Part shown: positions 27,576 to 62,744 of the stretch, piece by piece | Position numbering within the stretch: position 1 is the stretch's first letter | Layout of the letters: the number at the start of each line of letters is the position of its first letter | DNA from: a virus | Taxonomy: Duplodnaviria > Caudoviricetes | Length of the DNA stretch: 64,000 nucleotides | Reading direction: 5' to 3' (one strand) | Virus record (IMG/VR): IMGVR_UViG_3300033067_002581 | Location: 32,001 to 96,000 of that record | Program-made: the position numbers and the translations under genes | Notes under the pieces: model-generated | Told to the model about the DNA's origin: nothing | What the model saw: the letters and a program-made list of their open reading frames with translations, nothing else | Databases searched by the model: none

Positions 27576-27863
27576 TCACAGAGGCCAGCGAACGCCAAAG
27601 CATCTCTCAAACTCAGCCGCTGATCTGGTCTTCGCGTTTAGTGCCGTCATGACTGACTCGACGTCAGCGCCAGGTTTCGAGATCTCCTGCTGAAACTTCT
27701 TTGATGATACCATCGCGCGCGCCAGAGCAAGCGCCTCAAGCTTAGACGCGCGCACCCTAAGAGAGATCGCCTTACCAGCTAACCACGCAGCGACGGCGAC
27801 AAACAGGAGTTTACCGACGCCGTTTATGTGTAGCTCGTTTAATCGTCTGTCTTGGTTCATCAC
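27576..27863 (-). CDS. hypothetical protein
   Basis: 95 aa; RRLNE near N-terminus, hydrophobic stretch, ends GVRWPL. Confidence 0.65.
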   Translation of the reverse strand: MMNQDRRLNELHINGVGKLLFVAVAAWLAGKAISLRVRASKLEALALARAMVSSKKFQQEISKPGADVESVMTALNAKTRSAAEFERCFGVRWPL

Positions 27864-28227
27864 CAGCTCTCAATCTATGATCATCTGCAACGCTTTTGAT
27901 CTCATCAGCTTTCATGCGAAATTCTTCAGCTGTCGCAGCGTCAAGTGGAATCTCATCTCCACGAACATGATCATAGCAGTTTGCTGCATAGCATAAATCG
28001 TCATGCGCACGTATGCACGCATTGAATGCTTCATAGTGAGAAGACGGAGCGTTGTTGCTCTTTGCGACGGCGCTTAAAGCAAGCGCATTCTTTAGCGCAA
28101 CAGATGCACTAGCCGCTGATTCACTCGCCTCTAATTCTCTACTACGATGTATGACCGGCGCATCAAACATGCGATAGAGATCGCTGTTTGAGATCACTTC
28201 TTTTATCAGAGACTTGAGCAATTTCAT
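27811..28227 (-). CDS. hypothetical leader-bearing protein (MKLLKSLIKE)
   Basis: start re-assigned to the ATG just after the upstream stop; shared leader. Confidence 0.6.
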   Translation of the reverse strand: MKLLKSLIKEVISNSDLYRMFDAPVIHRSRELEASESAASASVALKNALALSAVAKSNNAPSSHYEAFNACIRAHDDLCYAANCYDHVRGDEIPLDAATAEEFRMKADEIKSVADDHRLRAGDEPRQTIKRATHKRRR

Positions 28228-28228
28228 C

Positions 28229-28585
28229 TTACAACCACTGTTCGGTCGCGCGAACCAAGACGCTGATGTCATCAGGCATCAAACCGTCTGTCAGTTCATC
28301 AAACGACATCTTCTGAAACCTGTCACGAACGTCTCTGTCGTACCCGTCAAACTCTTGATTGAGCAGCACTCTACGTTGACGCTCATCAGCAGCATCCCAC
28401 TTCAACTTCGCCGTAGCTTTTCTCTCAGCCTCTCGACGAGCCACAGCGGATCTTGATGACGAGCCACGCTTCTTTGGCTCGTGACGGTGAAAGATCGGGG
28501 CGTCTGTTCCCAGACCCGTCCACGTGCCCTTCACTTCACACACGCGAATCGATTCGCGCACCAATTCTTTTAACGAATGATTCAC
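28229..28585 (-). CDS. hypothetical leader-bearing protein (SLKELVRES)
   Basis: shared leader; DAPIFHR also present as DAPVIHR in the neighbour. Confidence 0.6.
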   Translation of the reverse strand: MNHSLKELVRESIRVCEVKGTWTGLGTDAPIFHRHEPKKRGSSSRSAVARREAERKATAKLKWDAADERQRRVLLNQEFDGYDRDVRDRFQKMSFDELTDGLMPDDISVLVRATEQWL

Positions 28586-31306
28586 TTAGTAACCAAGCGC
28601 TTTGGCGTGACGCCCAGTTCTCGGCCGCGGGCTGACCCTTGAACGTTTCACAGCTGCTTTGATAGCGTTGATCATCGCTTGACCGTCGCTACCAGGCTTC
28701 ACAAGGATCTGCGCGTCCTCAGCATCGGGAAGGTGTTTCCGCACATACCCACTTGACGTGACTGAGTATTTTGCGTCTGTCTGCTTGTCTAACATGACAA
28801 GCGTACCGTTTACGCTCTGCTTGCTAGTGCTGACGTCAACCAAGCCGATATCGCTAAAATCACTCGCTGAAACCTGCTCAGGCTGAGCGGCTACTGACGC
28901 TACAGGTAACAGAACCTGAACAAACGAACTCTCCGCTCCACCTTTAACAGAAGCGTCAAACTTTGCAGCTTTCAGTAACTGTTCAATCTTACTAGCGATT
29001 TTTTTATGAGACGCTATCATATCTGCGTACTCATACGCATCTTTGACGTGCCTATCATCCTCAGATTCAGTGTGCAGTTCAATTCTGTCTGGTTTGTTGC
29101 CACGACCTGAAAACGACATCCACACGCAGAAGCCGTTCGACCCATAGGATTCAGCGCCATCTTCTGGCGGCTCACGTTCGAATCCAAAGCCAGCAGACGA
29201 CAGCAATTTCTCTATCTTCGCAATATTTTTTTCCTGTGCTGCCTCTCGCTGAGCAACAACTGTCGTCCCCGCGGGAGCCTCAGTGAGCTGATTACGCATA
29301 CGACTCCTGATCTCACGAAGCGCCAGCCTCACATCCTGACTCGTGACACCCTCGCCAAAGACAGCCTTACGATCCTTCGTGATCGCGTTGACAACCTTCT
29401 GAACCATCTCCTCTGGCGTCCCGCCTCCCGGGAGCATGAGGTTTGAGTCGAGCGTAGCGCCAGGACGCCGCTTTCGCACGTATCCGCTAGACTGCAGGAA
29501 GTACTTGATGTCTGTCTCCTTGTCGAGGAGGACGACCGTACCGTTAGCCCGCTGCTTCTCTGTCGAGATGTCCTCAACGCCGTTTATCTGCGGGACGTTG
29601 AACGAGAGGTTCTGCTGGATCGCGTCCTCGGCCTTTGGGATCGAGATGGTTACACGCCAGTCGTTTGACTCGCTCATGCCGTAGTTGCGTTTGGGTGTCA
29701 GTTTGACGCTGCCGTACCTCTTGCAGTCACCTGCAAAGTCACGAACTTCCTGTTCAGAGAGAGCGTGACTGTTTCTAAACTCAACAGACACGACGTAGTT
29801 TTTCGCGCTTGATGAAAGGTTTACGAACGCGTTGCTTCTACTGACGTTCAGGTTGTCACGAACCTCTCGTTGTATCTCATCGAACGCGCGCCTGACATCT
29901 GATGGGTACTGCCTGGTCATGTGCAGTGGCTTGCCTTTGATCTCAGCGAGCCTGCGCTCACGACCTTCACCGAATCTCTTCATACGAGACTTCTTAATCC
30001 TTGAGACAACGATGTCGACCATCTGCTCTGGTGTGCCCCCGCCTGGCTTCATGATGACCTGGCCCTCCTCACGACCAGCGGTGTATGGGTTCGTCGACAC
30101 AACGATCTTGCGAACATAACCGTTTGAATACAGCGCGTACTTGTCGTCGGTCTCTTTATCCTTGATGACGAGCGTACCATTCGCTCTCTGCTTCTCAGTC
30201 GAGACGTCAGCGATGCCCGGGATTTCAGGCATGACAAACTGCTTCGGCGTCACAAGCCTGTCTTCGCTCTTGGGTATCGTGAAAATATACTGAGTTCGAT
30301 CGTCGCTGTAAGGCCTGACGATTTTCACAGGACCTAGCTTTTTGAGTATCGAAAGAAACTTCGCTTCAACTGATTTTCGGCGTTCTGATTCATAGATCTC
30401 GACAGTGATGAGGTAGTTTTTCGCACCAGAGCTCTTGTGGACCCACCCCTCTCCACGTTTAATACCGACGGATCTAAGAGCGTCTTCAGCGCGCGCCGCT
30501 AGCAGATCGATTTCTGGTGGGTACGTCTCTGATTGATGAAGCGAACGACCTCTGATCGCCTCGTTCACGATGTTCGTTAAAGCGGACAGCGACACGTTGT
30601 TTACTGATCTCAGTACTCTCTTTACCGATCTGACCTCACCAAAAGTTTTTTTACGCGCTTTCGTGATCCTGTCAGACACGAAGCTGACCATCTCATCAGC
30701 TGACTTTCCATCTGGTTTAAGCATCACGGATGCGCTATCTCCGTTCCCACGAAGATACGGACTCGCTGACGTTGTAATTCTTCTGACGTAGCCGTTTGAG
30801 TGAAGCGAGTATCTGGTCCCTGTCTCCTTGTCAAGGATGACCATGGTGCCGTTCTCGCGCTGCTTCGTGGTCGTTATGTCTTCGATCCCAGGAATCTTTG
30901 GTGGCTCGAACGATTTTACATCGATCTCTCCTGTGTCACTCTTCGGAAGAGTCACGATGTATATCGCGCCGCTATCGGCCTCGCTGTGTACTTTCAGCGT
31001 TGGCGATCCACCAGACCATGACGCGCATAGGCTGTTGATGATGCGCTTGCAGGTGTTTCGTCTTGCGCGATCGACGCCGATCGAGTTGCTATCAGGTATG
31101 ATAGACGCGCGTAACATGAACCCACTGTTGTCATCTGACATCCACGCGATGACATAGACATTGATCTTCTCACCTTTAAAGATCTCGCTTAGTCCGCGTT
31201 TCACATTTCTGACAAGGGCTGCAGCCTCAGGTGATATCGCGGTTGATTTGATCTTGCCAACTGCTTCAGTGACGATGTCACGTAGGTCTGTCATGGTCAT
31301 TTTCAT
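28586..31306 (-). CDS. four-module repeat protein / putative head polyprotein
   Basis: four copies of GxxDxxTxKQxxNGTxVxxDKxTxxxYxxxSxGYVR, each module preceded by an L/I/V-x-E leader. Confidence 0.8.
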   Translation of the reverse strand: MKMTMTDLRDIVTEAVGKIKSTAISPEAAALVRNVKRGLSEIFKGEKINVYVIAWMSDDNSGFMLRASIIPDSNSIGVDRARRNTCKRIINSLCASWSGGSPTLKVHSEADSGAIYIVTLPKSDTGEIDVKSFEPPKIPGIEDITTTKQRENGTMVILDKETGTRYSLHSNGYVRRITTSASPYLRGNGDSASVMLKPDGKSADEMVSFVSDRITKARKKTFGEVRSVKRVLRSVNNVSLSALTNIVNEAIRGRSLHQSETYPPEIDLLAARAEDALRSVGIKRGEGWVHKSSGAKNYLITVEIYESERRKSVEAKFLSILKKLGPVKIVRPYSDDRTQYIFTIPKSEDRLVTPKQFVMPEIPGIADVSTEKQRANGTLVIKDKETDDKYALYSNGYVRKIVVSTNPYTAGREEGQVIMKPGGGTPEQMVDIVVSRIKKSRMKRFGEGRERRLAEIKGKPLHMTRQYPSDVRRAFDEIQREVRDNLNVSRSNAFVNLSSSAKNYVVSVEFRNSHALSEQEVRDFAGDCKRYGSVKLTPKRNYGMSESNDWRVTISIPKAEDAIQQNLSFNVPQINGVEDISTEKQRANGTVVLLDKETDIKYFLQSSGYVRKRRPGATLDSNLMLPGGGTPEEMVQKVVNAITKDRKAVFGEGVTSQDVRLALREIRSRMRNQLTEAPAGTTVVAQREAAQEKNIAKIEKLLSSAGFGFEREPPEDGAESYGSNGFCVWMSFSGRGNKPDRIELHTESEDDRHVKDAYEYADMIASHKKIASKIEQLLKAAKFDASVKGGAESSFVQVLLPVASVAAQPEQVSASDFSDIGLVDVSTSKQSVNGTLVMLDKQTDAKYSVTSSGYVRKHLPDAEDAQILVKPGSDGQAMINAIKAAVKRSRVSPRPRTGRHAKALGY

Positions 31307-31324
31307 ATATGATACGTATTGCGC

Positions 31325-32463: not shown

Positions 32464-32781
32464 TTATGATCCGTACTCACCGTTCATCAGCGCTGTCTCT
32501 GCGCGCTCGATCTCTTCAAGGATCTTGTCATTGAGCCTAGAACACGCCTCTCTGACCTGCGCCGTCCAGCTGTCACGCGATGCGATCTCATCCTCATCAC
32601 CTTCTCCAGCCGGGTTCATCAACTCTGAGCGGTATTGAGCTGACCACTGGTCTTTCAAGCTCTCGACGAGAAAATCGACAGCCTCATCATATGAGCTCGG
32701 GATCTGCCTTGAGTCGATCTCACCAGCTGACTCCCTGATGATGCGTGATAGCTGCCTAGCGGACACTTTTCTGATCTTCAT
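32464..32781 (-). CDS. hypothetical leader-bearing acidic protein (MKIRKVSARQLSRIIRES)
   Basis: shared leader; start re-assigned. Confidence 0.65.
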   Translation of the reverse strand: MKIRKVSARQLSRIIRESAGEIDSRQIPSSYDEAVDFLVESLKDQWSAQYRSELMNPAGEGDEDEIASRDSWTAQVREACSRLNDKILEEIERAETALMNGEYGS

Positions 32782-32813
32782 ATAAGAAGATATCATCATG
32801 CATTACATTATCA

Positions 32814-34520
32814 ATGATGAGCGGACACAAAGAACACTTAGAAGAATTCGCGAAGATGCATGGTGTGACGTGGAGGAGAGGGCAGGACGACGCCATCCTC
32901 GAGATCCTTGCAGCGAAAGATAGTGGCGCGCGGTGTGTCATCCTAGACGCGCCGACTGGCTCTGGCAAGAGCCTGATAGCCATGGCGCTCGGGTGGTGCC
33001 TCTCGCGAGAGGCTCAGAGTTCGTACGTTCTTGTGTCAGACCTGACGCTGCAGCGTCAGTACGTGTCTGACTTTGAGAAGCTAGGCCTGCGATGGCCTTC
33101 GGTCATGGGCGTGAAAAACTATGAGTGCTCTGAGTCACGAACGCCCGTCTCAGTCGGATGGTGCTCAGGGAACCTGATCAAACTAGGCATCAAGAGACGT
33201 GACCTTCCGTGCTATTCTGGGTGTGGCTACTACTCCGCTAGAGATGCCGCCCAGCTGTCAAGCGTCGCACTCTTAAACTACGCGTACTGGCTGATGCAGA
33301 TGAATTACGTCAACCTGCGGCTGCGACGGGGTGAGCAGTCTGAAGGTGGCTTCGCGGTGAGAGACGCATCCATATTTGACGAGGCACACAAGATAGACGC
33401 GATCGTGCACAGTCACTGCGCCGTCAAGCTCGACGCGAGGCTGCTCGCGGCGATATCCTCAATGAAGCACATCGTCCCGCCGCGAGCTCGAACAAAATCA
33501 GTGAAACTCATGCGAGATATCGCGGCGGCTGACAGAGCGTCGTGGCTGCCGATGATAGAGGAGCTTGAGAGGCTCATCGGCAAGATGGAGAGTGCCGCGA
33601 TGAAATGGCGATCCGATCTCGATCCTACCGTCAAGAGGTGGGACGCGAAGACGACCTCGCTGATGCACGCCGCCGCGGACCTAAGGGACGCTCACTGCAA
33701 GATCGAGGACTACCTTCAGATAGTGAAACCCAGCGTCAACGACATGACGCTCACGCCAGAGCCAAGCGGTGCGGTGCTAAACACGCTTGACACTCAATCA
33801 CTCGTCGGCTTCATGCTTAACAGGAGCACCAGGTTTCGAGTGCTGATGAGCGCGACATGGGGCTGTGAGAAAACAGCTAAAAGGTCAATCGGCGCTAACG
33901 ATGCCGTGATCGTGAAGATCAGGAGCGACTTCGACTTCACGAAGAGCTCACTGATCGTGTCACCCAGCGGAGACATGTCAGGTAAGTCTCGAGACGCATC
34001 GGTGCCAAATATCGCTGCGGCGCTCGACACTTTGATCGCTGCGCACCCAGGTATGCGTGGCGTCGTACACACGAGCTCATACGACATACGCGATAGGCTT
34101 ACTGCGCTCGTGTCAGACGCGTCTCGAGCGAGGCTCACACCATATGACGACACTCGAGGCAAAGAGGCGGCCTTGTCGCGACACTCCGCGTGTGATGACA
34201 GCGTCCTGATAGGGCCGTCGCTCGTTGAAGGTATCAACCTGCCTGATGACATGTGTCGCTTCGTAGTGTTCGCGAAGTGCCCGTATCCCTATCTGGGAGA
34301 CGACTGGACAGCGAAGAAGACTGAACGCGACAGGCATTGGTATGAGTGGAAGACAGCTCTTGCGATAGAGCAGGGTAGTGGTCGCGGGATGCGACACGCT
34401 AATGACTGGTGTAACGTCTTTTTCTTAGACAGCGCGTTCCTGAAATTCTTCAGGAACTCAAAGAGCTTCAGCACACAGTTCTCTGAGCGATTGAAGGCTG
34501 GCGATCAAGAGGTCACATGA
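32814..34520 (+). CDS. DinG/XPD-family SF2 helicase
   Basis: APTGSGKS, Cys cluster, DEAH, SAT, EGINLPDD..FAKCPYP, QGSGRGMRH. Confidence 0.9.
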   Translation: MMSGHKEHLEEFAKMHGVTWRRGQDDAILEILAAKDSGARCVILDAPTGSGKSLIAMALGWCLSREAQSSYVLVSDLTLQRQYVSDFEKLGLRWPSVMGVKNYECSESRTPVSVGWCSGNLIKLGIKRRDLPCYSGCGYYSARDAAQLSSVALLNYAYWLMQMNYVNLRLRRGEQSEGGFAVRDASIFDEAHKIDAIVHSHCAVKLDARLLAAISSMKHIVPPRARTKSVKLMRDIAAADRASWLPMIEELERLIGKMESAAMKWRSDLDPTVKRWDAKTTSLMHAAADLRDAHCKIEDYLQIVKPSVNDMTLTPEPSGAVLNTLDTQSLVGFMLNRSTRFRVLMSATWGCEKTAKRSIGANDAVIVKIRSDFDFTKSSLIVSPSGDMSGKSRDASVPNIAAALDTLIAAHPGMRGVVHTSSYDIRDRLTALVSDASRARLTPYDDTRGKEAALSRHSACDDSVLIGPSLVEGINLPDDMCRFVVFAKCPYPYLGDDWTAKKTERDRHWYEWKTALAIEQGSGRGMRHANDWCNVFFLDSAFLKFFRNSKSFSTQFSERLKAGDQEVT

Positions 34521-34798: not shown

Positions 34799-35062
34799 TC
34801 ACTCCTGCGTCGAGCTTACCTGCAGGCGTGCGTTCATCTTGCGCAGCGACGCAAGCATCTGCTCGCCGTTCGGGATCTCATCCCAACCATGCATATCGAT
34901 CAGCTGCTCAAACGCGTCAGCGATCTCAGCGTGCTCTGCGCCCTCGCGGACAGTGCGCTTCTTTTTCTTATCAGCGATCGGCTTTTTCTTAGACTTGGCA
35001 CCCTTCGCCTCAGCGACAGCGCGACCGATGACGCTCTTCAACTCTCTGACTGTGATCTTCAT
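34799..35062 (-). CDS. hypothetical leader-bearing protein (MKITVRELKSVIGRAVAEA)
   Basis: shared leader, Lys-rich stretch; start re-assigned. Confidence 0.7.
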   Translation of the reverse strand: MKITVRELKSVIGRAVAEAKGAKSKKKPIADKKKKRTVREGAEHAEIADAFEQLIDMHGWDEIPNGEQMLASLRKMNARLQVSSTQE

Positions 35063-35993: not shown

Positions 35994-36448
35994 GTCAGAT
36001 CCACCACTTTCTCTGTCCCAAACAATCTACGCCAGTCACTGATGAATCGATCGTTTACGTTCATCGCGATCGCTCCAGACCTGTCACCACCGTGGAAATC
36101 AAACTCTACGTCTCTGATCGCTCGCTCCGTAAAACCAAGCGATCTTAGCAGGTCTCGAAACTCCTGCTTGCTGATGATGTGCTCGTGGCGAGCTGTTGAT
36201 GTGTCAGCGTGGCGCGGGTCATCCCAGCGCTTACCCTCGTTCTCAGCGATGTACACAAGCAGCTCGCCGTAATCGTTTAAAGTGTGTCGCTTGAGCTGCA
36301 ATTTCGTCACGCTTGAGTCCCTGCAGTGAGCCTTGTAGTTCACGACGTACGGATCCTGAAGCGTCTTCAGCGTCGCGGTTCGAGCGCCACTGTAGATCGC
36401 CTCTGATATAAGAACTCGTAACGGCGAAAGCTTGCTTCTTTTATGCAT
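35990..36448 (-). CDS. hypothetical leader-bearing protein (LRVLISEA)
   Basis: shared leader. Confidence 0.65.
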   Translation of the reverse strand: MHKRSKLSPLRVLISEAIYSGARTATLKTLQDPYVVNYKAHCRDSSVTKLQLKRHTLNDYGELLVYIAENEGKRWDDPRHADTSTARHEHIISKQEFRDLLRSLGFTERAIRDVEFDFHGGDRSGAIAMNVNDRFISDWRRLFGTEKVVDLT

Positions 36449-37512
36449 CAGTAGCCTCTACGACGAGCAAAACGATCCTCGCGGATGCTGATCGACACGT
36501 CAAAATCAACTGTCAGTATCTCTGGCGGTACTTTCACGCGTGAGTCCTTCGGATCAGCCCAGTCATATGAGATCTCTAGCACCTCTGAACCGCTGCTGTC
36601 AAGAGGTACCTCGACGATCATACCGTCATCATTCTTGACATCAAAGCCCGCGGCGCGTACGGCAGCGAAGACGGCGTCACGCATCTCCTCGCCACTCTTC
36701 TTCGAGCGTTTCACATCGACCATCGCTGTCTTGTGAAGCTGAGAGACGACAGGCGTGACTCGCAGCTTGCGTAGCTCGGAGGCTATCAGCTCAGCCATAC
36801 CCATCGGGTCAGCGATCTCTCGCTTCGATTTCTCATACTCTGGCACACCAAACCCGCACGCTGCCGCGTCAGCTCTCTCAGCGACGGACGCCGCGTTCTT
36901 GCCGCTTAGCTTGCCGAGATCGATGAAGAGGTCGTGTATCGTGCCAGCGACGGCGCTCGCTCCGTCCTCCCTGCCTTCATCATCGCGATACTTTCGAGTC
37001 GCCTCGATCTCGCACTCTTGCCAGGCGTCCCACAGCGGGCCCGTCACATCATCAGACCCACCATAATCAAGGTCGCTGATGACGCTGATGACGTCAGGTG
37101 AGAGCCCGAGCTCAGTCGCCAACGAGGCGACATACTTGCGATACTCGCTCCACGATTTTGGATAGTTCTGCGCGCTGAGAGCGAGCTTAGACTTCTGCTG
37201 CTTCTTGCCACGCACGGCTTCGGAGACGATCTGCCGTAGCTCCCTGACTGTCACTCTCATCTTGTCACTCTGCCCAAAGTTCTTTATCTGACTCAGCGAA
37301 GTAGACATGCTTTCAATCGCCGCTTTGTCTTCCTGATTATCAGGATCTGCTGATGCTGAGGCTATCTGGATTAACGTTTTGATGCGATCGGCGTATTGAG
37401 ACGCTATGTTGCTTGCTATCGATGCGCTGGCGGCGTCAGCGATCGCTATGCGCGATTTTTGCAATGAGTGTTTGACCGCGTCATTGGCGACGCTGACCTT
37501 ACGAGTAATCAT
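36448..37512 (-). CDS. hypothetical protein with internal leader (MRVTVRELRQIVSEA at about aa 85)
   Basis: 354-aa ORF; possible gene fusion or internal start. Confidence 0.65.
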   Translation of the reverse strand: MITRKVSVANDAVKHSLQKSRIAIADAASASIASNIASQYADRIKTLIQIASASADPDNQEDKAAIESMSTSLSQIKNFGQSDKMRVTVRELRQIVSEAVRGKKQQKSKLALSAQNYPKSWSEYRKYVASLATELGLSPDVISVISDLDYGGSDDVTGPLWDAWQECEIEATRKYRDDEGREDGASAVAGTIHDLFIDLGKLSGKNAASVAERADAAACGFGVPEYEKSKREIADPMGMAELIASELRKLRVTPVVSQLHKTAMVDVKRSKKSGEEMRDAVFAAVRAAGFDVKNDDGMIVEVPLDSSGSEVLEISYDWADPKDSRVKVPPEILTVDFDVSISIREDRFARRRGY

Positions 37513-37708
37513 CGTCTAACGTATCTTCTTCATCTGATTCAGCGTCGTCAAGGTCGACGTCTGATAGCTCTTCATCAGGATACTCATCTTCATCGTCCAG
37601 TAGAAGATCGTCTGACTCAGCGTCATCATCGCTGAACTCACTGTCATATAGTGTATCTTCTGGTTCGTCATTGATGCTATCAAACAGAGCTTCTCTAAGC
37701 GTATTCAT
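37499..37708 (-). CDS. highly acidic small protein (34/69 D+E) with TLREA leader
   Basis: RBS GAGGAG; composition counted by hand. Confidence 0.7.
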   Translation of the reverse strand: MNTLREALFDSINDEPEDTLYDSEFSDDDAESDDLLLDDEDEYPDEELSDVDLDDAESDEEDTLDDDYS

Positions 37709-38005: not shown

Positions 38006-38257
38006 TCAGTAAAGCTTTTCAAGCTCTACGCTGTAGAGTTTTATCAGTGACGCCCTGATACGCCTCTCAACTTCCTGAACGCGAATCGCAAGATCATCGT
38101 TGATCTCAACTCCATTGTTGGCTGCGTCATCATAGACAAACGCGCTAAAATCACTAGCGGCTCTGCCAGCGATCCTCTCAAGTGGGCTCGTCCGCTTCGT
38201 GCCCATCACTGGGCCGATCGCTTCGCTGACGATCTTTCGCAAAAGACTCGTTCTCAA
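38006..38257 (-). CDS. hypothetical leader-bearing protein (MRTSLLRKIVSEA)
   Basis: shared leader. Confidence 0.65.
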   Translation of the reverse strand: MRTSLLRKIVSEAIGPVMGTKRTSPLERIAGRAASDFSAFVYDDAANNGVEINDDLAIRVQEVERRIRASLIKLYSVELEKLY

Positions 38258-38281: not shown

Positions 38282-38920
38282 CTATGAGAAATCAAAATCA
38301 AACTCACCTGCGTTCAGGCCGAACCGATTGTTAGCAAGATCCAACGCTCTTTTTTTCACAACGTCGATTTTCTGCCTAGCGGACGCATCTTCACCTCGAA
38401 CAGAGGCGAACGATCTGCTATAGATGTTTCGATACATTGGAGCGTAACAGAACACGCTTATACTGACGCGAGTGATTCTTTTTCCGACACGCAGACGTCC
38501 CTTGACCTCCTGCTCAGATGAGCAGTTAAGAGATAGCTTCACATCGATATTATCAGCCAGTTTAAGTGACCACGTGCCGCTCTGGCCTCTCACCCACTCG
38601 CCGTAACACACGCGTGATTTCTCGTCCTCAAGCATTCGACGTAAATCAGCAACAGTAAGCGCAGATCGCTCATCAACACTATCGATCGCCTCTTTTATAA
38701 GCGCGGCTAGCGACTCAGACACACGTCCAGAACACCTGTCGCAACTCACATCACTATCGATCTTCGGTTTAGAGCTGCCCCACGACTTCAGGTTAAAAAC
38801 ATCGTGGCCACATGAGAGCTTCGCGCCGAAACCCACTGCATCATCTCTGTTTGTCGTCTCGTAACCATCACAATCAGCGTGATAAACGCGAATGATCTTA
38901 CTCATCACCACACTCTCCAT
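38282..38920 (-). CDS. hypothetical protein, N-terminal Cys/His cluster and internal leader (SLAALIKEA)
   Basis: LSCGH...CDRC followed by leader. Confidence 0.6.
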   Translation of the reverse strand: MESVVMSKIIRVYHADCDGYETTNRDDAVGFGAKLSCGHDVFNLKSWGSSKPKIDSDVSCDRCSGRVSESLAALIKEAIDSVDERSALTVADLRRMLEDEKSRVCYGEWVRGQSGTWSLKLADNIDVKLSLNCSSEQEVKGRLRVGKRITRVSISVFCYAPMYRNIYSRSFASVRGEDASARQKIDVVKKRALDLANNRFGLNAGEFDFDFS

Positions 38921-39282
38921 CTCATCATGAGTTGCCTGATGACATCCTCTATCATCTCACGTAGCTCAGCGTTTATCTGCTCGATCACGACGCTCGTCGT
39001 GCGCTGCACGATGCTATCTGTCAGGCCTGTCCTGCCGCTAGGCGCATAGAGGTCGTCTCGCTCCTCCATCTTTGAGATGATCGACTCGCGAAACCGTCTG
39101 TCTCGAAATCGCTTTTTCAGATAATCAGCGATGAAATACCCGAGACTGCGATCGACGTGAGCGGTCTTCAGACCTCCTAGCTCTGCCGCAGGTTCCTCAG
39201 CTGGCGGCCTTGGGGAACCTTCTAAGAGACCTCGCATCCTGATCTCTTCAGCGAGAATCTGCTTAAACCTGACGCTGTTCAT
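38905..39282 (-). CDS. hypothetical leader-bearing protein (RFKQILAEEI)
   Basis: shared leader. Confidence 0.65.
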   Translation of the reverse strand: MNSVRFKQILAEEIRMRGLLEGSPRPPAEEPAAELGGLKTAHVDRSLGYFIADYLKKRFRDRRFRESIISKMEERDDLYAPSGRTGLTDSIVQRTTSVVIEQINAELREMIEDVIRQLMMRWRVW

Positions 39283-39716
39283 GTGATATCCGAATCATAT
39301 TGTGGGTCTGGGAAATAGATCCCAGCGGCGCCACGGCTTGAGACACCGAGCGACACTACCACGCCATCTTTCTCAAACGTTCTGTCACCATCGCTGTTTT
39401 TCATCCCAGCGGGACTGACGCCTCGAAAACTCCAACCAGCGAGAGTCATGATCTGCGCAAGCTTATCACGTTGTCTTTTGACTGGCAAGCGCGTATCAGA
39501 CGCAGGACGCTTCACATCAACCACGATCCTGTTCAGAGAACCGTTCCATCTACTGATTTTTGCTTCGTAACCCGCAACATTGAACGCTTCAACTAGATTG
39601 ATCGCGAGTTTTTCTAATGATTCATCAGTGATACGAGAGACTGTTTCCGCTATCTTCTCTGATAGAAAGATCTCTTCAGACACTATCTGCATAATACGCT
39701 TGGTGGTCAGCGCCAT
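39279..39716 (-). CDS. hypothetical leader-bearing protein (LTTKRIMQIVSEEI)
   Basis: shared leader. Confidence 0.65.
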   Translation of the reverse strand: MALTTKRIMQIVSEEIFLSEKIAETVSRITDESLEKLAINLVEAFNVAGYEAKISRWNGSLNRIVVDVKRPASDTRLPVKRQRDKLAQIMTLAGWSFRGVSPAGMKNSDGDRTFEKDGVVVSLGVSSRGAAGIYFPDPQYDSDIT

Positions 39717-39922
39717 CGCTGCCTATCCTTTCGCTCGCGTCGCTTGAGCTCAGTGGCATTGTTGCGCGCCTCAGCGTCTCTAGCTCGCTCCATCTCATCA
39801 CCTGACTTCACACTATCAACACGAACCTCGCGAGGAGTCTTTGTAGACTCTGATAGACCGACCAGTTTAGCGAGCGCTAGCTCCTCGCGGAGGATCTTGT
39901 TGAACGTCGAGTGTTTTATCAT
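39707..39922 (-). CDS. hypothetical leader-bearing protein (IKHSTFNKILREEL)
   Basis: shared leader; TGATG coupling to sheath gene. Confidence 0.65.
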   Translation of the reverse strand: MIKHSTFNKILREELALAKLVGLSESTKTPREVRVDSVKSGDEMERARDAEARNNATELKRRERKDRQRWR

Positions 39923-43025: not shown

Positions 43026-43442
43026 TTATGACATCTTCGGTCTAGCGCGCTTTGCGTTGACGAATGTATCTCTTCTGGCTCTCGCTTTCATGAAGGCGTT
43101 TGTCTGAAACGTATCACCGTTTGAGAACATGTCCTCCTCACTCTCGATACCTCTCTCAACGATGTCGTCAGCGATATCGTTGATCGTCTCAGAGATGTTC
43201 AGCAGCAGGTGCTGCAGCGCCTCACGATTGTCACGAAAATCAAACTCACCGATATAATGACCGTATTCGCTATCGTCATCATATTTTGAAGCCGCATCCG
43301 CCATCGCGTCAAGCAGCTTTGAAGCACAGTCACGTATGACAGGCTCGATGCGTTTAGCGATACCGTCTGACAGGCGGTGCGCACCGGCGCCTGATATAGC
43401 CTCACTGATGATCTTTTTAAGATGAGCGTTGGTGATTTTCAT
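43026..43442 (-). CDS. hypothetical leader-bearing protein (MKITNAHLKKIISEA)
   Basis: shared leader; lies between the two sheath genes. Confidence 0.7.
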   Translation of the reverse strand: MKITNAHLKKIISEAISGAGAHRLSDGIAKRIEPVIRDCASKLLDAMADAASKYDDDSEYGHYIGEFDFRDNREALQHLLLNISETINDIADDIVERGIESEEDMFSNGDTFQTNAFMKARARRDTFVNAKRARPKMS

Positions 43443-48428: not shown

Positions 48429-48689
48429 TCACCTGATGTTGCGTCTATCGGCGTTTCTGATACGTGTGAGCACTCGTGACAGACCGTTAGTGATCGAATG
48501 CATTTTATCGAGGGTGCCATAGTCGCCCGAGTGACAGATCACCCTGCTTCGCTACTGGCAACACATCCTCAAGAAGCGATGTCAGTATGACTACGCGCTA
48601 GTGAGATGCTGATCTAATCTAGCGCTATCGTCATCTAGAGACTCGCTGATAAGTTTTCGAAATTCAGCGACTCCAATCGTTTTATACAT
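48429..48689 (-). pseudogene. frameshifted leader-bearing gene (MYKTIGVAEFRKLISESL...)
   Basis: TAATG-coupled start; TAG after 32 aa (48591); protein-like sequence continues in the -1 frame, then returns to frame 0 up to TGA at 48429. Confidence 0.5.
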
Positions 48690-52349: not shown

Positions 52350-52362
52350 GTTTCACACTCGC

Positions 52363-55764: not shown

Positions 55765-56346
55765 TTATCGAATGACGAGCTGTATCATAGCCGCTTCATA
55801 GTCGTCAGTCTGCTGACCCAATGGGTTCCATCCAGATTTCATGCCAACAAATTGTACGTTATCGCCAAACTCTGACACGAACCTTTTCACACCAGCTGAC
55901 ACAAGACCGTAGTCATGAAAGATGATCCTTGTCGTTCCCGGTGAGATGGCGCTTACGACGTTGTCAAAATCTGATTTGACGCTAGCGTATGAGTGATCCG
56001 CGTCGATCAGCACGACATCCCAACGACCACGCGGGATCGAGGCAGAGTCGCCGACAACAAACTCACAGTTCTTGACGCCTTCTACGTTAGCCCTATCGAT
56101 CCTGTCTGGAGCGATGTCGATCCCTAAGCACGCCTCAAAGAACGGCGCGACTGAGCGCGTCGTGTAGCCAACGTCACAGCCGATCTCAAGGTACTTTGAA
56201 GTCGGAGTGCCGAAACTCGCGATCTGGTCTCTTAGCAACCTAGTCACGGTCGTCTTGTATGTCATCTTGTCTGGATATGTCATATGAACCACCTGTGGCT
56301 CAGCGCTTGTGAGATTTGATAGCTCTTTCCTGCCCGTACGCATCAT
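55765..56346 (-). CDS. class I SAM-dependent methyltransferase (Methyltransf_24-like)
   Basis: YLEIGCDVG, GIDI, LIDADHSY, IFHDY. Confidence 0.85.
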   Translation of the reverse strand: MMRTGRKELSNLTSAEPQVVHMTYPDKMTYKTTVTRLLRDQIASFGTPTSKYLEIGCDVGYTTRSVAPFFEACLGIDIAPDRIDRANVEGVKNCEFVVGDSASIPRGRWDVVLIDADHSYASVKSDFDNVVSAISPGTTRIIFHDYGLVSAGVKRFVSEFGDNVQFVGMKSGWNPLGQQTDDYEAAMIQLVIR

Positions 56347-56621
56347 TCAGAGTCTTGTGTCGACCTAGCAGCTTTCATTGTGAGAGTACAAGCACCACGT
56401 TCTATCGCCTTAGAGTCGCCGCTCTTACATCGCTTGACGATCTCGCTTCTAAGACGATCTGATGAGTCTTCGTCGCGCGCCGCGCAGCCAACAACGCCGC
56501 CCGACGACATCTCATCGATGTCGTCCTCGTATATCGGCGCGGTGTGATACGCGGTGTGCTGAGCTGATACGATCTCATGCAGCAGCGATGCCAGAAGTGT
56601 CATGGCTCTCTGAGGCATCAC
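56343..56621 (-). CDS. hypothetical protein (LASLLHEI leader-like)
   Basis: coupled ORF. Confidence 0.5.
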   Translation of the reverse strand: MMPQRAMTLLASLLHEIVSAQHTAYHTAPIYEDDIDEMSSGGVVGCAARDEDSSDRLRSEIVKRCKSGDSKAIERGACTLTMKAARSTQDSE

Positions 56622-56866
56622 CGTCTGATCGCCTCACCGATGAGCGCTCGCAGCCCACGTAACGCCCTGCTCTCCCAGGTGAAATCCTTCGTTGACAGGC
56701 CAAGAGAGTCCTCTATGTCCTCAAACGGTATCCTGTCACCGTGCTGATCTACGTAGAGAAAATCTGATGGGTCCTTATCGACGAGCCAGATCGCCAGCGA
56801 GCCGATTCCACCCACGCGCGTGATAGGTTTCGAGCTTGAGCTACTCTTCTCAAATACAGATATCAT
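56618..56866 (-). CDS. hypothetical protein with C-terminal leader-like motif (LRALIGEAI)
   Basis: 82-aa ORF. Confidence 0.55.
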   Translation of the reverse strand: MISVFEKSSSSSKPITRVGGIGSLAIWLVDKDPSDFLYVDQHGDRIPFEDIEDSLGLSTKDFTWESRALRGLRALIGEAIRR

Positions 56867-56867: not shown

Positions 56868-57167
56868 TTATGATAGCGACTTGATGTCGCTCCTCAGGTC
56901 ACGATCCAGCGCGCTCCAGACCTCCTCTGTCAGCGCGATAAGCTCGCTAGCGACAGGTTCGAGCATCTCGTCAGGGTCATCTGAGGCACCAGCCATACTG
57001 TAATCCTCTAGGAACTCGCTGATATCCGGCGCGTCAGCGAGCTGGCCTGCGAGCTCCTTTATGACAGCATAGTGCTGCCTGATCTCTTCCATCAGATCTG
57101 ACGCTGACGCGCCGTTGACGGCCTCTTTTATCACCCTGACTAACTGCCTAGCTGACATCTTTCTCAT
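56868..57167 (-). CDS. hypothetical acidic leader-bearing protein (MRKMSARQLVRVIKEA)
   Basis: shared leader. Confidence 0.7.
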   Translation of the reverse strand: MRKMSARQLVRVIKEAVNGASASDLMEEIRQHYAVIKELAGQLADAPDISEFLEDYSMAGASDDPDEMLEPVASELIALTEEVWSALDRDLRSDIKSLS

Positions 57168-57549
57168 TACTTGCTCCCATATGCATTATATAACTTTGTT
57201 ATAAGCGCCACGGCGCGGCGCCTGTGCTTTTCTGCGGTGCGCCTCAACAGACCAATATCTTCAGACGCATCATCATCTTCAGCTCTGATGTCGCTATTAA
57301 GCTCTGAACACGTATGCATCTCATGAACGATCTGGTCGATAGATGACGCTTGAGAAGGCGTAAATGAAACTAACGCACGTTTTAAAGCGTTTCGAAATGA
57401 GGTTCGTCAGCATCACTATGCCATGCTGACGATATCAGCTCATCAGCTTTCAACAACAACTTCTGAAGCTCACCAGAAGCTAATTTCACGCCATTACCAG
57501 ACGCAGCCTCTCTGATGAGAGAGAATAACTGTTTGTTAGAGATTTTCAC
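57167..57549 (-). pseudogene. frameshifted leader-bearing paralog of the 57730-58236 gene
   Basis: GTG start MKISNKQLFSLIREA, stop at 57382; -1 frame continues SFRNALKRAL...LYNAYGSK to a TAA overlapping the next ATG. Confidence 0.65.
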
Positions 57550-58236: not shown

Positions 58237-58265
58237 GAGTACGCATCTCCTATTCAACAAACGAC

Positions 58266-58331
58266 ACACGCCCGACTCTCGCCGGGCGTGTTAACTTGCA
58301 CGCTTACTGATCCTCATTATAAGTGAGGATC
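58266..58331 (-). terminator. two hairpins downstream of the major capsid gene
   Basis: GATCCTCA/TGAGGATC (58309-58331) and ACACGCCCG/CGGGCGTGT (58266-58291); U-tract weak. Confidence 0.5.
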
Positions 58332-58337
58332 GCTCCG

Positions 58338-60230
58338 TTAGATGATGTTCATGTCCATGACGGTGACAGTCCCGTAGAAGTCAGACCTGATCATCTTCTT
58401 GCCGTATCGGGTCATGACACCCTTACGCGGCGTGAAGTCCTCCGGCGCGAAGATCGTCGGGGTGACGATCAGCGGGACATAAGGAGCGTAGCCGGTCTCG
58501 AGGTAGCTTCCGCCCTTATACCCGATCAGGATCTTGTTCCTAGAGAAGTACGGATCCTTGTAGACAGTGAAGCGGTTGCTCAGCGTCCCGATCTGCTCAC
58601 ACCCAATCGAGAACGGTGCGCTGACCTGACCTTGTGAGTCGATCGTCAGCTTCGGCTTGTAACACACTGATGACTCGATGATCGTCGCGACATCAGGGCT
58701 GATGACGATGAAGTTCGCAGAGCCGCGGAGCGTCTTGCGATGGATCGTGTTACCGACGTCGATGATCGTCTCGATCAGAGTCTCGTACCACTCCCTGACA
58801 GTGCCAGTGAAGTGTGGACCGACCGCGAGCGAGTTCGCCAGGTTGATCGTCCTGCCGCTGATCTTGTCGACAAACTTGCCTGGAGACCTGCTCCAATACA
58901 TCGTCGCGCCGTTGGCCTGCGTCACGAGGTCGTTCAGGATCTCTCTGTCGATCTCAAGCGCGACCTGCTGTGACAGGATCGATGTCAGCTCGACTTCAGC
59001 GTCCATCGAGTGATAGGCGTTGAGGTCCTGAGCCAGCTCCGGTGACCAGCGAGCGCGAAGCTTGCGAGTCGTTGCAGTGATCGGGATAGACTCGATCTTG
59101 ATGTCGATCTCAGGGATCGCTGGTGATGGCGACGTGCCAAAGTCGGACTCAAACGACGGGATCGTCAGGGTCGAACCGACAGAGTCACCGGCCTGCAGCG
59201 AGTCGGCGATCGCCATGCTGAACCATGATGCCGCTGTGGCGACAGCCGGGACAGCTGAACCAGTCGACAGCTTCACGACGAACTGCACGTGAGAGCCATT
59301 GAGGGGGTTCGGCGTGAACGTCGAACCGTTCCAATCACCGCGCTTGTTCAGGCGGCGGAGGTTGAGGATGCCCTTGCCAGACTGATACGCCTCGCCCCAA
59401 TCACTCGCGCCGTTATTCGTCGCGAACTTCGTGATCGCGATCTGCTCAGGAGACAGGAAGTCGCCGCGCTGGATCAGCGTCTGCATCGCGCTCACTGACA
59501 TGTGAGCGAAGCAGAAATTCAGCAGGCCTGCGGCCACGTCATTCGTCAACTGGGAGTCAAACGAGATGAAGCGAGCGTTTGAGCCAGTGATGTCAGACTC
59601 AGCTCGCACAGCGCCGCCGACAGTCCACGCATCACCTGTGCCAGTGAAGGCGCCGATATCGAGGCCAGAGCCTGAGAGGCTGTGAGAGCCTGTGTGAACG
59701 CGAGTGTAACCGACGTTCACGAGGTCATACATGCCACCTGCGGCAAGAGAGCCGCTCTGCACGCCGCGACCGGCTGGGTTGTTAAAGAGCGACTGACCCG
59801 CCTGATACGTCTCAGCGGTGGAGTTTGGATCGAGGTTCAGACCCGCCTCGCCACCGACGTTTGAACCGTAGGTGTAGTCGAGATAGAAAATCAGGCCCGC
59901 CGGCAGCGACATAGGTTGGATCGAGACGATCTCATTTGCGACGAGAGCGCCGAAGACCCTACGCACCATGGGAAACGCGATGTTCGAGAAACCGTTGATG
60001 TTTCCCGTGCTCGTTCCACTTGCTCCACCGGTGCTGATGCCGTTAGCACCCTCACGAAGGATCTGTGCGGCCTGGTTCTCGAGCAGCTGCGCCATGTTCT
60101 CGCGCTGCGTCTCGTCAAGGCCTTTCAGGAGGCCGGTCCGCGACCACTTCTCAGTCAGGCGGCGCCTCTCCTGCCCGACGTGTTTCTCTCTGATGCCAGA
60201 GAGTAGCTGGTTTACTGTGACAGTTGACAT
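58338..60230 (-). CDS. gp23: major capsid protein (T4 gp23-like)
   Basis: LLENQ, FPMVRRVF, VSIQPMSLPAGLIFYL, TRKLRARWSPELAQDL, EIDREI, APYVPL, GVMTRYG. Confidence 0.96.
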   Translation of the reverse strand: MSTVTVNQLLSGIREKHVGQERRRLTEKWSRTGLLKGLDETQRENMAQLLENQAAQILREGANGISTGGASGTSTGNINGFSNIAFPMVRRVFGALVANEIVSIQPMSLPAGLIFYLDYTYGSNVGGEAGLNLDPNSTAETYQAGQSLFNNPAGRGVQSGSLAAGGMYDLVNVGYTRVHTGSHSLSGSGLDIGAFTGTGDAWTVGGAVRAESDITGSNARFISFDSQLTNDVAAGLLNFCFAHMSVSAMQTLIQRGDFLSPEQIAITKFATNNGASDWGEAYQSGKGILNLRRLNKRGDWNGSTFTPNPLNGSHVQFVVKLSTGSAVPAVATAASWFSMAIADSLQAGDSVGSTLTIPSFESDFGTSPSPAIPEIDIKIESIPITATTRKLRARWSPELAQDLNAYHSMDAEVELTSILSQQVALEIDREILNDLVTQANGATMYWSRSPGKFVDKISGRTINLANSLAVGPHFTGTVREWYETLIETIIDVGNTIHRKTLRGSANFIVISPDVATIIESSVCYKPKLTIDSQGQVSAPFSIGCEQIGTLSNRFTVYKDPYFSRNKILIGYKGGSYLETGYAPYVPLIVTPTIFAPEDFTPRKGVMTRYGKKMIRSDFYGTVTVMDMNII

Positions 60231-60252
60231 AATGTGTTGTGTATCCTAACCG

Positions 60253-61773
60253 TTAGCGAGCGAGACCAGCGAGAACGCTCCATCGCGCTGCGCTGACGCC
60301 CTCATTGATCGTTGTTGACGAGCCAGAACCCACGGTCCGCGATGATGCACTCATGCGGCGAGCTCCACGATTCTCGTTTAGCTTCTGCGAACCATTCAGC
60401 AAGTCAATGACGCTCTCAAAGATCATCTTGACTTCCCTGACGGTCCCTGCCTTTGACAGGCGCTCCATGACCTGGCGCTTCTGCGCCGCGGAGATGTCGT
60501 TCCTGAGAAGCAGTTTGTTCGCATATGCGAGCTGAGCATTTGTCACGTTGGCTTTTGCCAACTCACTCGACTCATTAACTCGAGCCGACTGTGTCACAGC
60601 GCCTCGCGCTGGAATCCTGCGGCCTGGTGCCGCGCTGTTACGAGTGAGGGTCGCGATTCTCGCCTTACACTCGCGGTATGTCTTTAGCTTGCCCTCTCTG
60701 AGAGCTCTCGTCTTCAGGGCGCGCAGCCTCGAGATACTTCTCTCGGTCACGATATCAACGTCAAGCGGATCACCCTCAGCGCGACCATCACCAAAAGCGT
60801 CTAGGTGACCTGCGCCATGACCCCTGTTATCTGGGCGAGCCTCTGCTTCTCTGACGCTCCTCAGGCGAGCGATCTCAGCCTTGATCTCGGCCTCATCGAT
60901 CTCGATGACGTCATCATCACGCAGCGGCTCTTCAGCCTCGTGCTTGTTGTCATCGTCATCGTCATCGCCGCCATCATCATCATCACCACCGAAATCGAGC
61001 TCGTCACCCGAATCGGAATCATCCTGATTCGAGTCATCGCCGCCCTCATCATCGTTGGTGTCAGACGATTGCTCGCCGCCATCCTCACCATCTGACTCGA
61101 TCTCGACTCCGACGTCCTGCAGATCGATGTCCTCTGGCATACCAGTAAGCTTCAGGCTGATATCGTTCTCTCTGATTCTCTTCATCCCAATCTCTCCAAC
61201 AGCTAGCTGTGCTAGGCTGCGCTCCAAGGCTTCACTTAGCCGTCTTGTCGCACTATCGTCAGCGCCGCCAGCGTTGATCTGCGTGTACATATCTGTCATG
61301 TGAGCTTTTAGCTCCTGCAGGCGCTCTGCGTATGCTGGTGATCTTTTTGAGATCCTTGCGCCAAGCATCATCTTCGCCTCAGCGACAGCGCTTGTCACAT
61401 CATCCTCCATAGACGCATCATCAACACCATCAAGGATCTCTCCGCTGGAATCGATGACATCGGCAGATGGGATCGACGGTGACGGCGGTGTTGGGATCGT
61501 CGGGATGACAGGTTGCGGTGTAGGTTCTGGTCTTGCGACCTGCGCGTCAGCCGTGACAGCGGGTGTGACATTTAGTGTGACGTTTCCGGACGCGTCTGGC
61601 TCTGTCATCTGAACGTCAACGTCGAGGTCATCATCACCCGCTCCTATGACCTCGCTCTCAATGAGACGACGGATGCGTGGTAGAGTCGCGGCGAGCAGCT
61701 TCTCTGTGGCTCGCTCCTCAGCGACCTCAACGTATTTTCGCGCGTCAGTCAGCGCCTGCTCATAGACAGTCAT
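60253..61773 (-). CDS. prohead scaffold/core protein (gp22-like)
   Basis: upstream of capsid gene; acidic tract, many [LIV]xE sites, NAQLAYANKLL, ends WSVLAGL. Confidence 0.8.
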   Translation of the reverse strand: MTVYEQALTDARKYVEVAEERATEKLLAATLPRIRRLIESEVIGAGDDDLDVDVQMTEPDASGNVTLNVTPAVTADAQVARPEPTPQPVIPTIPTPPSPSIPSADVIDSSGEILDGVDDASMEDDVTSAVAEAKMMLGARISKRSPAYAERLQELKAHMTDMYTQINAGGADDSATRRLSEALERSLAQLAVGEIGMKRIRENDISLKLTGMPEDIDLQDVGVEIESDGEDGGEQSSDTNDDEGGDDSNQDDSDSGDELDFGGDDDDGGDDDDDDNKHEAEEPLRDDDVIEIDEAEIKAEIARLRSVREAEARPDNRGHGAGHLDAFGDGRAEGDPLDVDIVTERSISRLRALKTRALREGKLKTYRECKARIATLTRNSAAPGRRIPARGAVTQSARVNESSELAKANVTNAQLAYANKLLLRNDISAAQKRQVMERLSKAGTVREVKMIFESVIDLLNGSQKLNENRGARRMSASSRTVGSGSSTTINEGVSAARWSVLAGLAR

Positions 61774-62282
61774 GTGATGTTATGCTTCCCCAGCTGCAGA
61801 GTCTCTCTCGCGGCATCAAGCCTCAGCGCTCCGATCTCAGGACCCGCCTGAGCAGGGCTGATAGTGCCGTTAGTTCCGATCACAACGTTTGGTCTGACAT
61901 CTGCTGGTGTCACACCCGGATCGGCTGCTTTCAATGGATCGTTATTTATCGCGACGTTCTCACCGATAGCACCGGGATCTGCGCCGGGTGAGACCACGTT
62001 AGGCGTGAACGGTGTCATCGGCAGACCTTTAAACGGCTGCGTCGCGCTCGTCACCGCGTCAACAACAGCAGGCGACGCACTAAAATCTAGCGCGACGCGT
62101 GGAGACAGAAGTGGATCTCCAAACTGGACTCGCGGGATCAGCTTCTCGTTTGCTATCGAGACAAGCTTCTCATGAGTCAAGCTTCCATCATTCTGTGGAT
62201 CAAAAGGAAAGACCTTCGCAAGCAAGACGTTCTTTTTACGTAGCTTGCTGACGACGGTCCCGTATTTTCCTGTTCCTGGCAT
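61770..62282 (-). CDS. hypothetical protein (head module)
   Basis: 170-aa Pro-rich ORF coupled to scaffold gene. Confidence 0.6.
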   Translation of the reverse strand: MPGTGKYGTVVSKLRKKNVLLAKVFPFDPQNDGSLTHEKLVSIANEKLIPRVQFGDPLLSPRVALDFSASPAVVDAVTSATQPFKGLPMTPFTPNVVSPGADPGAIGENVAINNDPLKAADPGVTPADVRPNVVIGTNGTISPAQAGPEIGALRLDAARETLQLGKHNIT

Positions 62283-62318
62283 CTGTTATTTCTGCTATCT
62301 GTCAGATACGTATCATGA

Positions 62319-62744
62319 CTACGCGTCTGGTTTTGGAACAACTGACGATCTCGTCGGCAGCGGCGCGCTGAAGGCTAACTTTTCTAACAGATCACCAGCC
62401 TGCTCAACCACTTGTGGAAGAGCATCACGACGCCTCTCTGCGTGCTCTTGAGCCTGCAGCGTGGTTCGCTGCGTGTCTTGCAGGACGTCCTCAAAGATGT
62501 TTGTCGCAGCCTTCCTTTTAAACGAGATCGTATCAGCGGGCCTTCGCTCGGGACGAGCTTGTGATTCTGTCACGATCGGTCTCTGCTGCGTCGTCGCAGC
62601 ATTTGCGACTCGCGCCTCAGCTATCAGGCTGACAGCCAGCGACCTCATCTTCCTAGAGACGGCTTCATCTATTCGCCGATCTAGCTCCTCAGAGACAAGA
62701 TCCGCGACGATCTCACGAAGATCATCCATGTTTAACTTCATCAC
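62319..62744 (-). CDS. hypothetical leader-bearing head protein (MKLNMDDLREIVADLVSEE)
   Basis: leader, LIAEA and VTES sites; head module. Confidence 0.65.
   Translation of the reverse strand: MMKLNMDDLREIVADLVSEELDRRIDEAVSRKMRSLAVSLIAEARVANAATTQQRPIVTESQARPERRPADTISFKRKAATNIFEDVLQDTQRTTLQAQEHAERRRDALPQVVEQAGDLLEKLAFSAPLPTRSSVVPKPDA

Follow-up and report, generated by a model that had tools for sequence, protein, structure and literature searches.

We questioned why many otherwise dissimilar proteins, encoded among the head and tail genes of a distant T4 relative, begin with nearly the same short sequence. The window analysed here is a stretch of 64,000 nucleotides, bases 32001-96000 of a single 154,907-bp IMG/VR virus contig (IMGVR_UViG_3300033067_002581), and nearly all genes of the region lie on the minus strand. 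Its T4-type genes include two sheath paralogs, a gp19-like tube, a T4-type baseplate hub, and gp13- and gp15-like neck proteins. A reading made from the letters of the window (the sequence-only reading) had proposed that about 25 proteins carry a portable leader that would direct them into the capsid, be removed there by the prohead protease, and possibly allow the proteins to be injected as anti-defence or host-takeover effectors. This number agrees with our count: the leader stands at the N-terminus of ~21 minus-strand open reading frames (ORFs) between 27.8 and 64 kb of the window, three further copies are internal (in the ORFs at 36448-37512 and 38282-38920 and at Glu249 of a 906-amino acid (aa) protein), and one is C-terminal (in the ORF at 56618-56866). 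We refer to these ORFs as tagged and to the remainder of each protein as its body.

A leader shared by dissimilar proteins

A profile anchored on the invariant Glu gave the leader consensus M-K-[IV]-[TS]-x-[RK]-Q-L-[KR]-x-[IL]-[IV]-[RKS]-E, followed by [AE]-[IV]. At the end of the leader, this Glu is accompanied by I/L at position -3, I/V at -2, and A/E/S at +1, in keeping with the cutting rule of T4 gp21 (hydrophobic-x-Glu, then a small residue), and the leader measures 10-18 residues in this contig, most often 14. When the first 25 aa of the 170 called genes were searched with a loose regular expression, 25 genes matched, compared with 6.0 +/- 2.2 when N-termini were shuffled or internal windows were drawn at random; the motif is enriched over both controls. 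Matching genes made up 17 of the 49 genes in the head/tail block and 8 of the 121 genes elsewhere (Fisher 1e-5). A position-specific scoring matrix (PSSM) of the leader, applied in leave-one-out fashion, found 14 matches in the N-terminal zone against 1.2 expected from the internal match rate of the same proteins (p 7e-11). In a six-frame scan with the PSSM, the top ten matches all fell on the minus strand between 28 and 64 kb of the window, with eight of them sitting 9-16 residues past a start codon. The motif was absent from the sheaths, tube, and hub encoded in the same operons as the tagged genes.

The codons of the leader indicate the level at which it is conserved. Six codons are in use for Leu at position -6 and both codons for Glu, with a third-position identity of 0.33; leader conservation acts on protein, not DNA. 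An origin of the leader copies from a DNA repeat or a recent duplication was rejected because the synonymous codons are scrambled.

All ORFs listed in the sequence-only reading were found on the minus strand and start as it described, although its numbering gives starts for some ORFs and stops for others (at 57549, for example, the ORF at 57382-57549 begins with GTG). Most of its members stood as well, including the internal copies in the ORFs at 36448 and 38282 and the C-terminal copy at 56618, all of which were recovered by the PSSM (Table 1). The ORF at 37499 is a weak member (6-residue leader, 4.7 bits) and that at 28229 a moderate one, while a tagged 32-aa mini-ORF at 48591-48689 had been missed. 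Two further members reach past the window end or lie just beyond it (genome 95758-96048 and 98845-99150).

Behind the leader, the bodies differ widely. In pairwise BLAST of the bodies without their leaders, no pair scored better than E 0.07, and the tagged arrays lie between structural genes, which supports the description of one short leader on a diverse set of unrelated proteins. Bodies range from 16 to 892 residues in length and from 4.1 to 10.1 in isoelectric point (pI), with a pI below 6 in 11 of 23; many look helical, low-complexity, and acidic by eye. Searches for known relatives returned little. The 20 tagged proteins scanned gave no significant Pfam or PHROG match, and thus none that would link the bodies to IPI, IPII, IPIII, or Alt of T4. 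Among 18 larger tagged proteins of relatives, Pfam returned DUF2608 in one and otherwise sub-threshold matches only. The ESM Atlas, whose models were of low confidence, held no usable look-alike of the 906-aa and 354-aa proteins, and a protein database search with the product of the ORF at 43026 recovered only a 95% identical twin. An AlphaFold2 (AF2) single-sequence model of the 152-aa protein was unusable (predicted local distance difference test score (pLDDT) of 43). That of the 145-aa protein (pLDDT 67) places the leader within an N-terminal helix preceding an alpha/beta domain, and Foldseek searches of PDB and BFVD with this model returned nothing at E <= 1e-3, with only uncharacterised phage proteins near 1e-3. 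The suggestion that the bodies are anti-defence or host-takeover proteins was therefore not borne out, since no body resembles an anti-defence or other known protein by Pfam, PHROG, Atlas, or Foldseek.

Some tagged proteins have features of their own. The body of the 69-aa protein at 37499-37708 contains 33 acidic and 0 basic residues, a composition that suggests a DNA mimic and would make it a candidate anti-restriction protein if packaged. The 906-aa protein contains one domain four times (residues 140-222, 364-395, 575-611, and 819-857), as detected with a profile built from standalone relatives, whereas BLAST self-comparison found no repeats; the same domain occurs in standalone tagged proteins of two related loci (L084 and L085). 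Besides its N-terminal leader, this protein has only one strong internal leader-like site. In the 212-aa ORF at 38282-38920, a Cys-rich start of ~70 residues resembles a zinc ribbon and directly precedes the internal leader-like site. The 354-aa ORF at 36448-37512, with its complete internal leader, may be a fusion, a protein with a long propeptide, or a case of internal start.

Leader-like sites in the capsid and scaffold proteins

The prohead protease encoded in the window aligned to the T4 gp21 structure 5JBL (Table 1). At two positions where the 5JBL chain reads Ala, it carries His (within G-E-L-D-H-P) and Ser (within S-S-R-G), and wild-type T4 gp21 likewise has His at the first of these two positions. 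We take the two Ala positions of 5JBL to be mutated catalytic residues of gp21.

An N-terminal alignment of 59 capsid sequences revealed a site of the form hydrophobic-L-[KR]-E, followed by S, A, or G, at ~residue 60; among the 45 alignment rows listed, it is present in all save one incomplete row. This position is near that at which T4 gp23 is cut. The sequence-only reading had placed the capsid site at the N-terminal Glu15, but this residue is Asp in many relatives, and the conserved site is the one at ~residue 60. The gp23-type profile matches the 630-aa capsid protein in two separate parts, implying that much sequence has been inserted compared with T4 gp23.

The same pattern had also been claimed for the scaffold, and here the claim held: the acidic 506-aa protein in the scaffold position is conserved clade-wide and carries, near its N-terminus, an invariant Glu39 in a leader-like context. 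Since the capsid and scaffold sites match the leader, its last four positions are the probable protease site of the lineage, and a basic residue beside the Glu is preferred both at the leader end and in this probable site. A complex prediction for the scaffold (alignment A2) and the 138-aa protein at 43026-43442 returned a score of 0.00 ("no answer"), which counts neither for nor against.

Distribution and turnover of the tagged genes

To place the leader among relatives, we searched IMG/VR for protease homologues, which 590 stretches encode, and kept 80 loci with proteases 64-74% identical. These loci contained 129 start-proximal leader matches, with the Glu 13 or 14 residues past the Met in 78 of them. 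Another 87 matches were found in 42 loci around tail-tube homologues, one of which (L085) has ten in 12 kb, while the five loci with tube identity <= 41% had none. The leader is thus found clade-wide, in more than 120 IMG/VR loci (with a protease 64-71% identical or a tube 60-86% identical) and on at least 80 unrelated body families, and more distant relatives are without it. Across whole contigs, five long relatives have 2-10 profile matches each compared with 19 in this contig, on which the profile was trained.

The 225 tagged bodies fell into 80 BLAST clusters, 57 of them singletons, and of the 22 bodies of this genome that were clustered, 21 had no BLAST relative when compared with the other tagged ORFs from 122 related loci. 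Representatives of 58 families nevertheless share M, K, [LI], and T at positions -13 to -10, columns that the search PSSM did not use, and in five of six families the leader was more conserved than the body. Conservation and synteny with terminase, portal, and protease were seen for three tagged families, which thus take the position of T4 genes 67/68, and tandem paralogs occur in three relatives (L085, L119, and L120). Microcystis phage Mel-JY01, the closest cultured relative (protease 51% identical), has no array of tagged ORFs in the 40 kb around its head genes and is therefore unusable as an experimental stand-in.

A 14-kb Logan contig (L126) with 90-94% DNA identity allowed selection and turnover to be compared directly. 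The ratio of nonsynonymous to synonymous substitution rates (dN/dS) was 0.03-0.135 for three shared tagged genes and 0.004-0.09 for six neighbouring, mostly structural genes. A 196-bp segment present here (48701-48896) is missing in L126, leaving a 29-aa stump there, and the next tagged gene encodes 86 aa in L126 and 32 aa here. Conversely, L126 has an 816-bp segment with an additional tagged gene of 212 aa; its deletion here joins two cargo genes at 39791. Tagged ORFs are real genes under purifying selection that lie in indel-prone arrays between structural genes, and cargo genes have been deleted, truncated, and fused within ~6-10% nucleotide divergence, so that change in this arsenal is seen directly.

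The nearest deposited phages are Mel-JY01, the Flavobacterium 'immuto' phages, and Rhodothermus RM378, with a protein identity of only 35-51%; the head module had no blastn match among them or other deposited phages, and the contig contains no T4-type late promoter TATAAATA. Because related contigs reach 310-340 kb, the phage may be jumbo, with more tagged genes off the contig. IMG/VR classes the contig record as a provirus. The two sheath paralogs, of ~1000 aa each, are adjacent (39922-42978 and 43452-46463; phrog_23, 1e-44 and 2e-50), parted only by a tagged 138-aa gene, and both are kept in L126. Three tandem paralogs of 476-478 aa with weak tail-fibre-type PHROG matches (50913-55226) separate the neck genes from the head module. 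A 568-aa helicase (32814-34520, plus strand; phrog_2488, 2e-92) is the sole long plus-strand gene found within the minus-strand virion block and has tagged ORFs on either flank. Outside the tagged set, a 95-aa ORF without the leader (27576-27863), at the left boundary given in the sequence-only reading, encodes a hydrophobic, membrane-like segment.

Table 1. Tagged ORFs and associated head genes, in window positions (PSSM scores in bits)
Feature	Position	Strand	Measure
Tagged ORF, 138 aa, short 10-residue leader	27811..28227	-	PSSM 24.0 (20.5 leave-one-out)
Tagged ORF, 118 aa, GTG start, moderate leader	28229..28585	-	PSSM 11.1
Tagged protein, 906 aa; second leader-like site at Glu249; one domain four times	28586..31306	-	partial DUF6440 match
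Tagged ORF, 105 aa, acidic body	32464..32781	-	PSSM 22.8
Tagged ORF, 95 aa	34505..34792	-	PSSM 19.0
Tagged ORF, 87 aa, 18-residue leader	34799..35062	-	PSSM 12.4
Tagged ORF, 110 aa	35661..35993	-	PSSM 22.3; sub-threshold KH_1 match
Tagged ORF, 152 aa	35990..36448	-	PSSM 21.5; AF2 pLDDT 43
ORF, 354 aa, complete internal leader (Met codon 37260, Glu 37221)	36448..37512	-	PSSM 17.5, not in training set
ORF, 69 aa, extremely acidic, weak 6-residue leader	37499..37708	-	PSSM 4.7
Tagged ORF, 83 aa, TTG start	38006..38257	-	PSSM 24.3 (21.7 leave-one-out)
ORF, 212 aa, Cys-rich N-terminal part, then internal leader-like site (Glu 38692)	38282..38920	-	PSSM 17.9, not in training set
Tagged ORF, 125 aa	38905..39282	-	dN/dS 0.033 vs L126
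Tagged ORF, 145 aa; modelled N-terminal helix, then alpha/beta domain	39279..39716	-	dN/dS 0.135
Tagged ORF, 71 aa; product of the 816-bp deletion relative to L126, fusing two cargo genes at 39791	39707..39922	-	
Tagged ORF, 138 aa, between the two sheath paralogs	43026..43442	-	PSSM 25.5; dN/dS 0.131
Tagged mini-ORF, 32 aa, truncated relative to 86-aa L126 counterpart	48591..48689	-	
Tagged ORF, leader Met 48952; body mostly deleted in L126	48689..48976	-	PSSM 24.2
Tagged ORF, 91 aa, degenerate leader	56343..56618	-	PSSM 16.4
ORF, 82 aa, motif 4 residues from C-terminus	56618..56866	-	PSSM 13.6
Tagged ORF, 99 aa, acidic	56868..57167	-	PSSM 20.9
Tagged ORF, 55 aa, GTG start	57382..57549	-	PSSM 23.5
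Tagged ORF, 165 aa	57730..58227	-	PSSM 14.3
gp23-like major capsid protein, 630 aa; conserved site at ~residue 60	58338..60230	-	phrog_138 1.7e-70
Acidic 506-aa protein, gp22 scaffold position; leader-like site at invariant Glu39	60253..61773	-	pI 4.5
Tagged ORF, 140 aa, downstream of protease	62319..62741	-	PSSM 13.1
gp21-family prohead protease, 198 aa	63165..63761	-	phrog_207 1.8e-49; 5JBL E 3e-15
Tagged ORF, 96 aa, upstream of protease; start at 64048, past the window (genome 95758-96048)	63758..64000	-	PSSM 24.8

Proposed role of the leader and known packaging systems

Taken together, we consider it probable that the leader combines this lineage's version of the T4 capsid-targeting sequence with a prohead-protease propeptide and serves a greatly expanded set of proteins. 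The tagged proteins would be made late in infection alongside the head and tail proteins, and the basic amphipathic leader would bind the acidic scaffolding core, through which the tagged proteins would be built into the prohead. There, the protease would cut after the invariant Glu (hydrophobic-hydrophobic-x-Glu followed by Ala, Glu, or Ser) and release the bodies within the head. Some tagged proteins, chiefly those of the conserved families beside portal and protease, probably belong to the core in the manner of gp67/gp68, and the many fast-changing singletons in the tube and sheath arrays are probably internal head proteins that exit together with the DNA, while the internal copies of the tag and the multi-module 906-aa protein are best read as fused cargo units.

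Several points weigh against this explanation. The phage is uncultured, packaging, cleavage, and ejection are predicted from its sequence, and the contig is an estimated 42% complete (CheckV). Most arrays lie among tail rather than head genes, most bodies are acidic or neutral (pI 4.1-10.1) whereas T4 internal proteins are basic, and none of the bodies matched a known anti-defence or host-takeover protein. Nor does this PSSM recognise T4 leaders: the N-termini of T4 ipI, ipII, ipIII, gp22, and gp24 reach at most ~1 bit, and the link to T4 is therefore one of pattern and context, not of tag homology.

The same tag and protease could also serve another fate, in which the tagged proteins are accessory parts of the scaffold core, like T4 gp67, gp68, and gp22, that are cut and then expelled before DNA packaging. 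The three conserved families syntenic with terminase, portal, and protease would fit such a role, as would the many helical, low-complexity bodies that are acidic like the scaffold, and T4 core fragments mostly exit the head (PMC9026906). Core parts should be conserved, yet nearly every body of this genome lacks a BLAST relative in the related loci, and indels create or destroy tagged genes between nearly identical genomes. Because of this turnover and these missing relatives, accessory cargo fits better than core parts, and we regard a core fate as unlikely for the set, although it may apply above all to its conserved families.

We give still less credence to the idea that the tag is not a capsid signal but an amphipathic N-terminal helix for tail-lumen loading or for a membrane, a chaperone, or a modifying enzyme (as in ribosomally synthesized and post-translationally modified peptides). 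The position of the largest arrays, on the flanks of the tube and sheath genes, would suit this idea; the tail proteins themselves, however, are without the tag, which is also carried by genes beside portal and protease. A radical S-adenosylmethionine gene (PF04055), found in 14 of 14 control genomes, had no match in the 155-kb contig, which may be incomplete. The end of the tag is also identical to the conserved capsid maturation site, making a non-capsid partner less likely. It is very improbable, finally, that the tagged proteins are one family that grew through tandem duplication and of which only the N-terminal helix is still recognisable, in which case the tag would not be a portable module. 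The spread of body length and pI, the lack of detectable body similarity, and the contrast between one modelled alpha/beta body and many others that look all-helical by eye all argue against it, whereas the tandem paralogs in three relatives and the fourfold domain of the 906-aa protein are what it would predict. Such duplication would explain the origin of the set but not the retention of the tag alone, and divergence of tandem duplicates may account for part of that origin.

Going beyond the counterpart of the T4 targeting sequence that we favour, it is conceivable, though not what we would expect, that in this freshwater/environmental T4-related lineage a portable 14-residue label loads a large, fast-turnover set of proteins for delivery with the DNA and so provides a handle for injected effectors. 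If so, the label would find injected effectors in metagenomes, among them anti-defence proteins and perhaps a DNA mimic carried in the capsid, and a uniform tag on ~80 or more unrelated families would be a simple rule for collecting candidates. If the tag directs packaging, it would mark the capsid-borne proteins of an uncultured lineage, the first phage proteins to meet the host, and would offer a compact natural tag with which foreign proteins could be loaded into non-T4 capsids.

Among known systems, the propeptides of ejection and inner-body proteins in phiKZ-like giant phages vary in length and sequence, and their cut motif has a small residue at P3. In contrast, this lineage has one uniform short tag. 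The likeness to phiKZ-like phages such as SPN3US lies in a large packaged set, with many head-internal proteins cut after Glu by a prohead protease (PMC5694885, PMC7411985, PMC10052503). Phage P1 belongs to an unrelated phage lineage. Loading in P1 follows a hierarchy of Dar proteins instead of using one common tag that a protease removes. P1 nonetheless resembles the present case in that anti-restriction and other Dar proteins are loaded into the head via N-terminal signals (PMC9024508).

The T4 genome (NC_000866) offers the most detailed comparison. Its ipII, ipIII, gp22, and gp24 start with 9-10 residues ending in hydrophobic-x-E and followed by A or S (I-A-E then A after 10 residues in ipII and ipIII, I-A-E then A in gp22, L-R-E then S in gp24), and ipI has I-T-E then A after 19 residues. 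T4 packaged proteins include the anti-restriction factor IPI* and the RNA-polymerase modifier Alt. IPI-III and Alt of T4 and the T-even phages, their targeting sequence, and its processing by gp21 were reportedly treated by Mullaney and Black in 1996 and by Repoila et al. in 1994. T4 propeptides of 10-19 residues direct proteins to the core, with targeting in the front part of the tag and processing at its end, and other proteins with similar tags occur in T4-related phages; a change of the Glu to Asp in T4 abolishes cutting but leaves targeting intact (PMC9026906). The internal proteins of T-even phages are diverse defence proteins whose only common feature is the targeting sequence (PMC3012670). 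The principle is therefore already established for T-even phages, so that of the sequence-only reading's idea of a shared tag on diverse cargo the pattern stands but the novelty in principle does not; full-text searches on the T4 tag returned no paper that describes the tag of this lineage.

Compared with T4, the tag here has its own basic, 14-residue consensus, and the contig has ~21 tagged genes in 155 kb rather than three internal proteins plus Alt. The bodies are mostly acidic or neutral instead of basic, and the genes form arrays inside tail-gene operons, with some units fused. As with T4 gp67, gp68, and gp22, small proteins beside portal and protease have protease motifs near their N-termini; sequence similarity to those T4 proteins is absent, and the conserved protease neighbours here share their tag with the variable cargo. 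The likeness to IPI-III and Alt of T4 and T-even phages is that a short tag at the extreme N-terminus (10-18 residues here, 10-19 in T4; PMC9026906) ends in hydrophobic-x-Glu and precedes unrelated bodies, that a gp21-family protease is encoded with the same motif at capsid and scaffold sites, and that the tagged genes vary among related phages.

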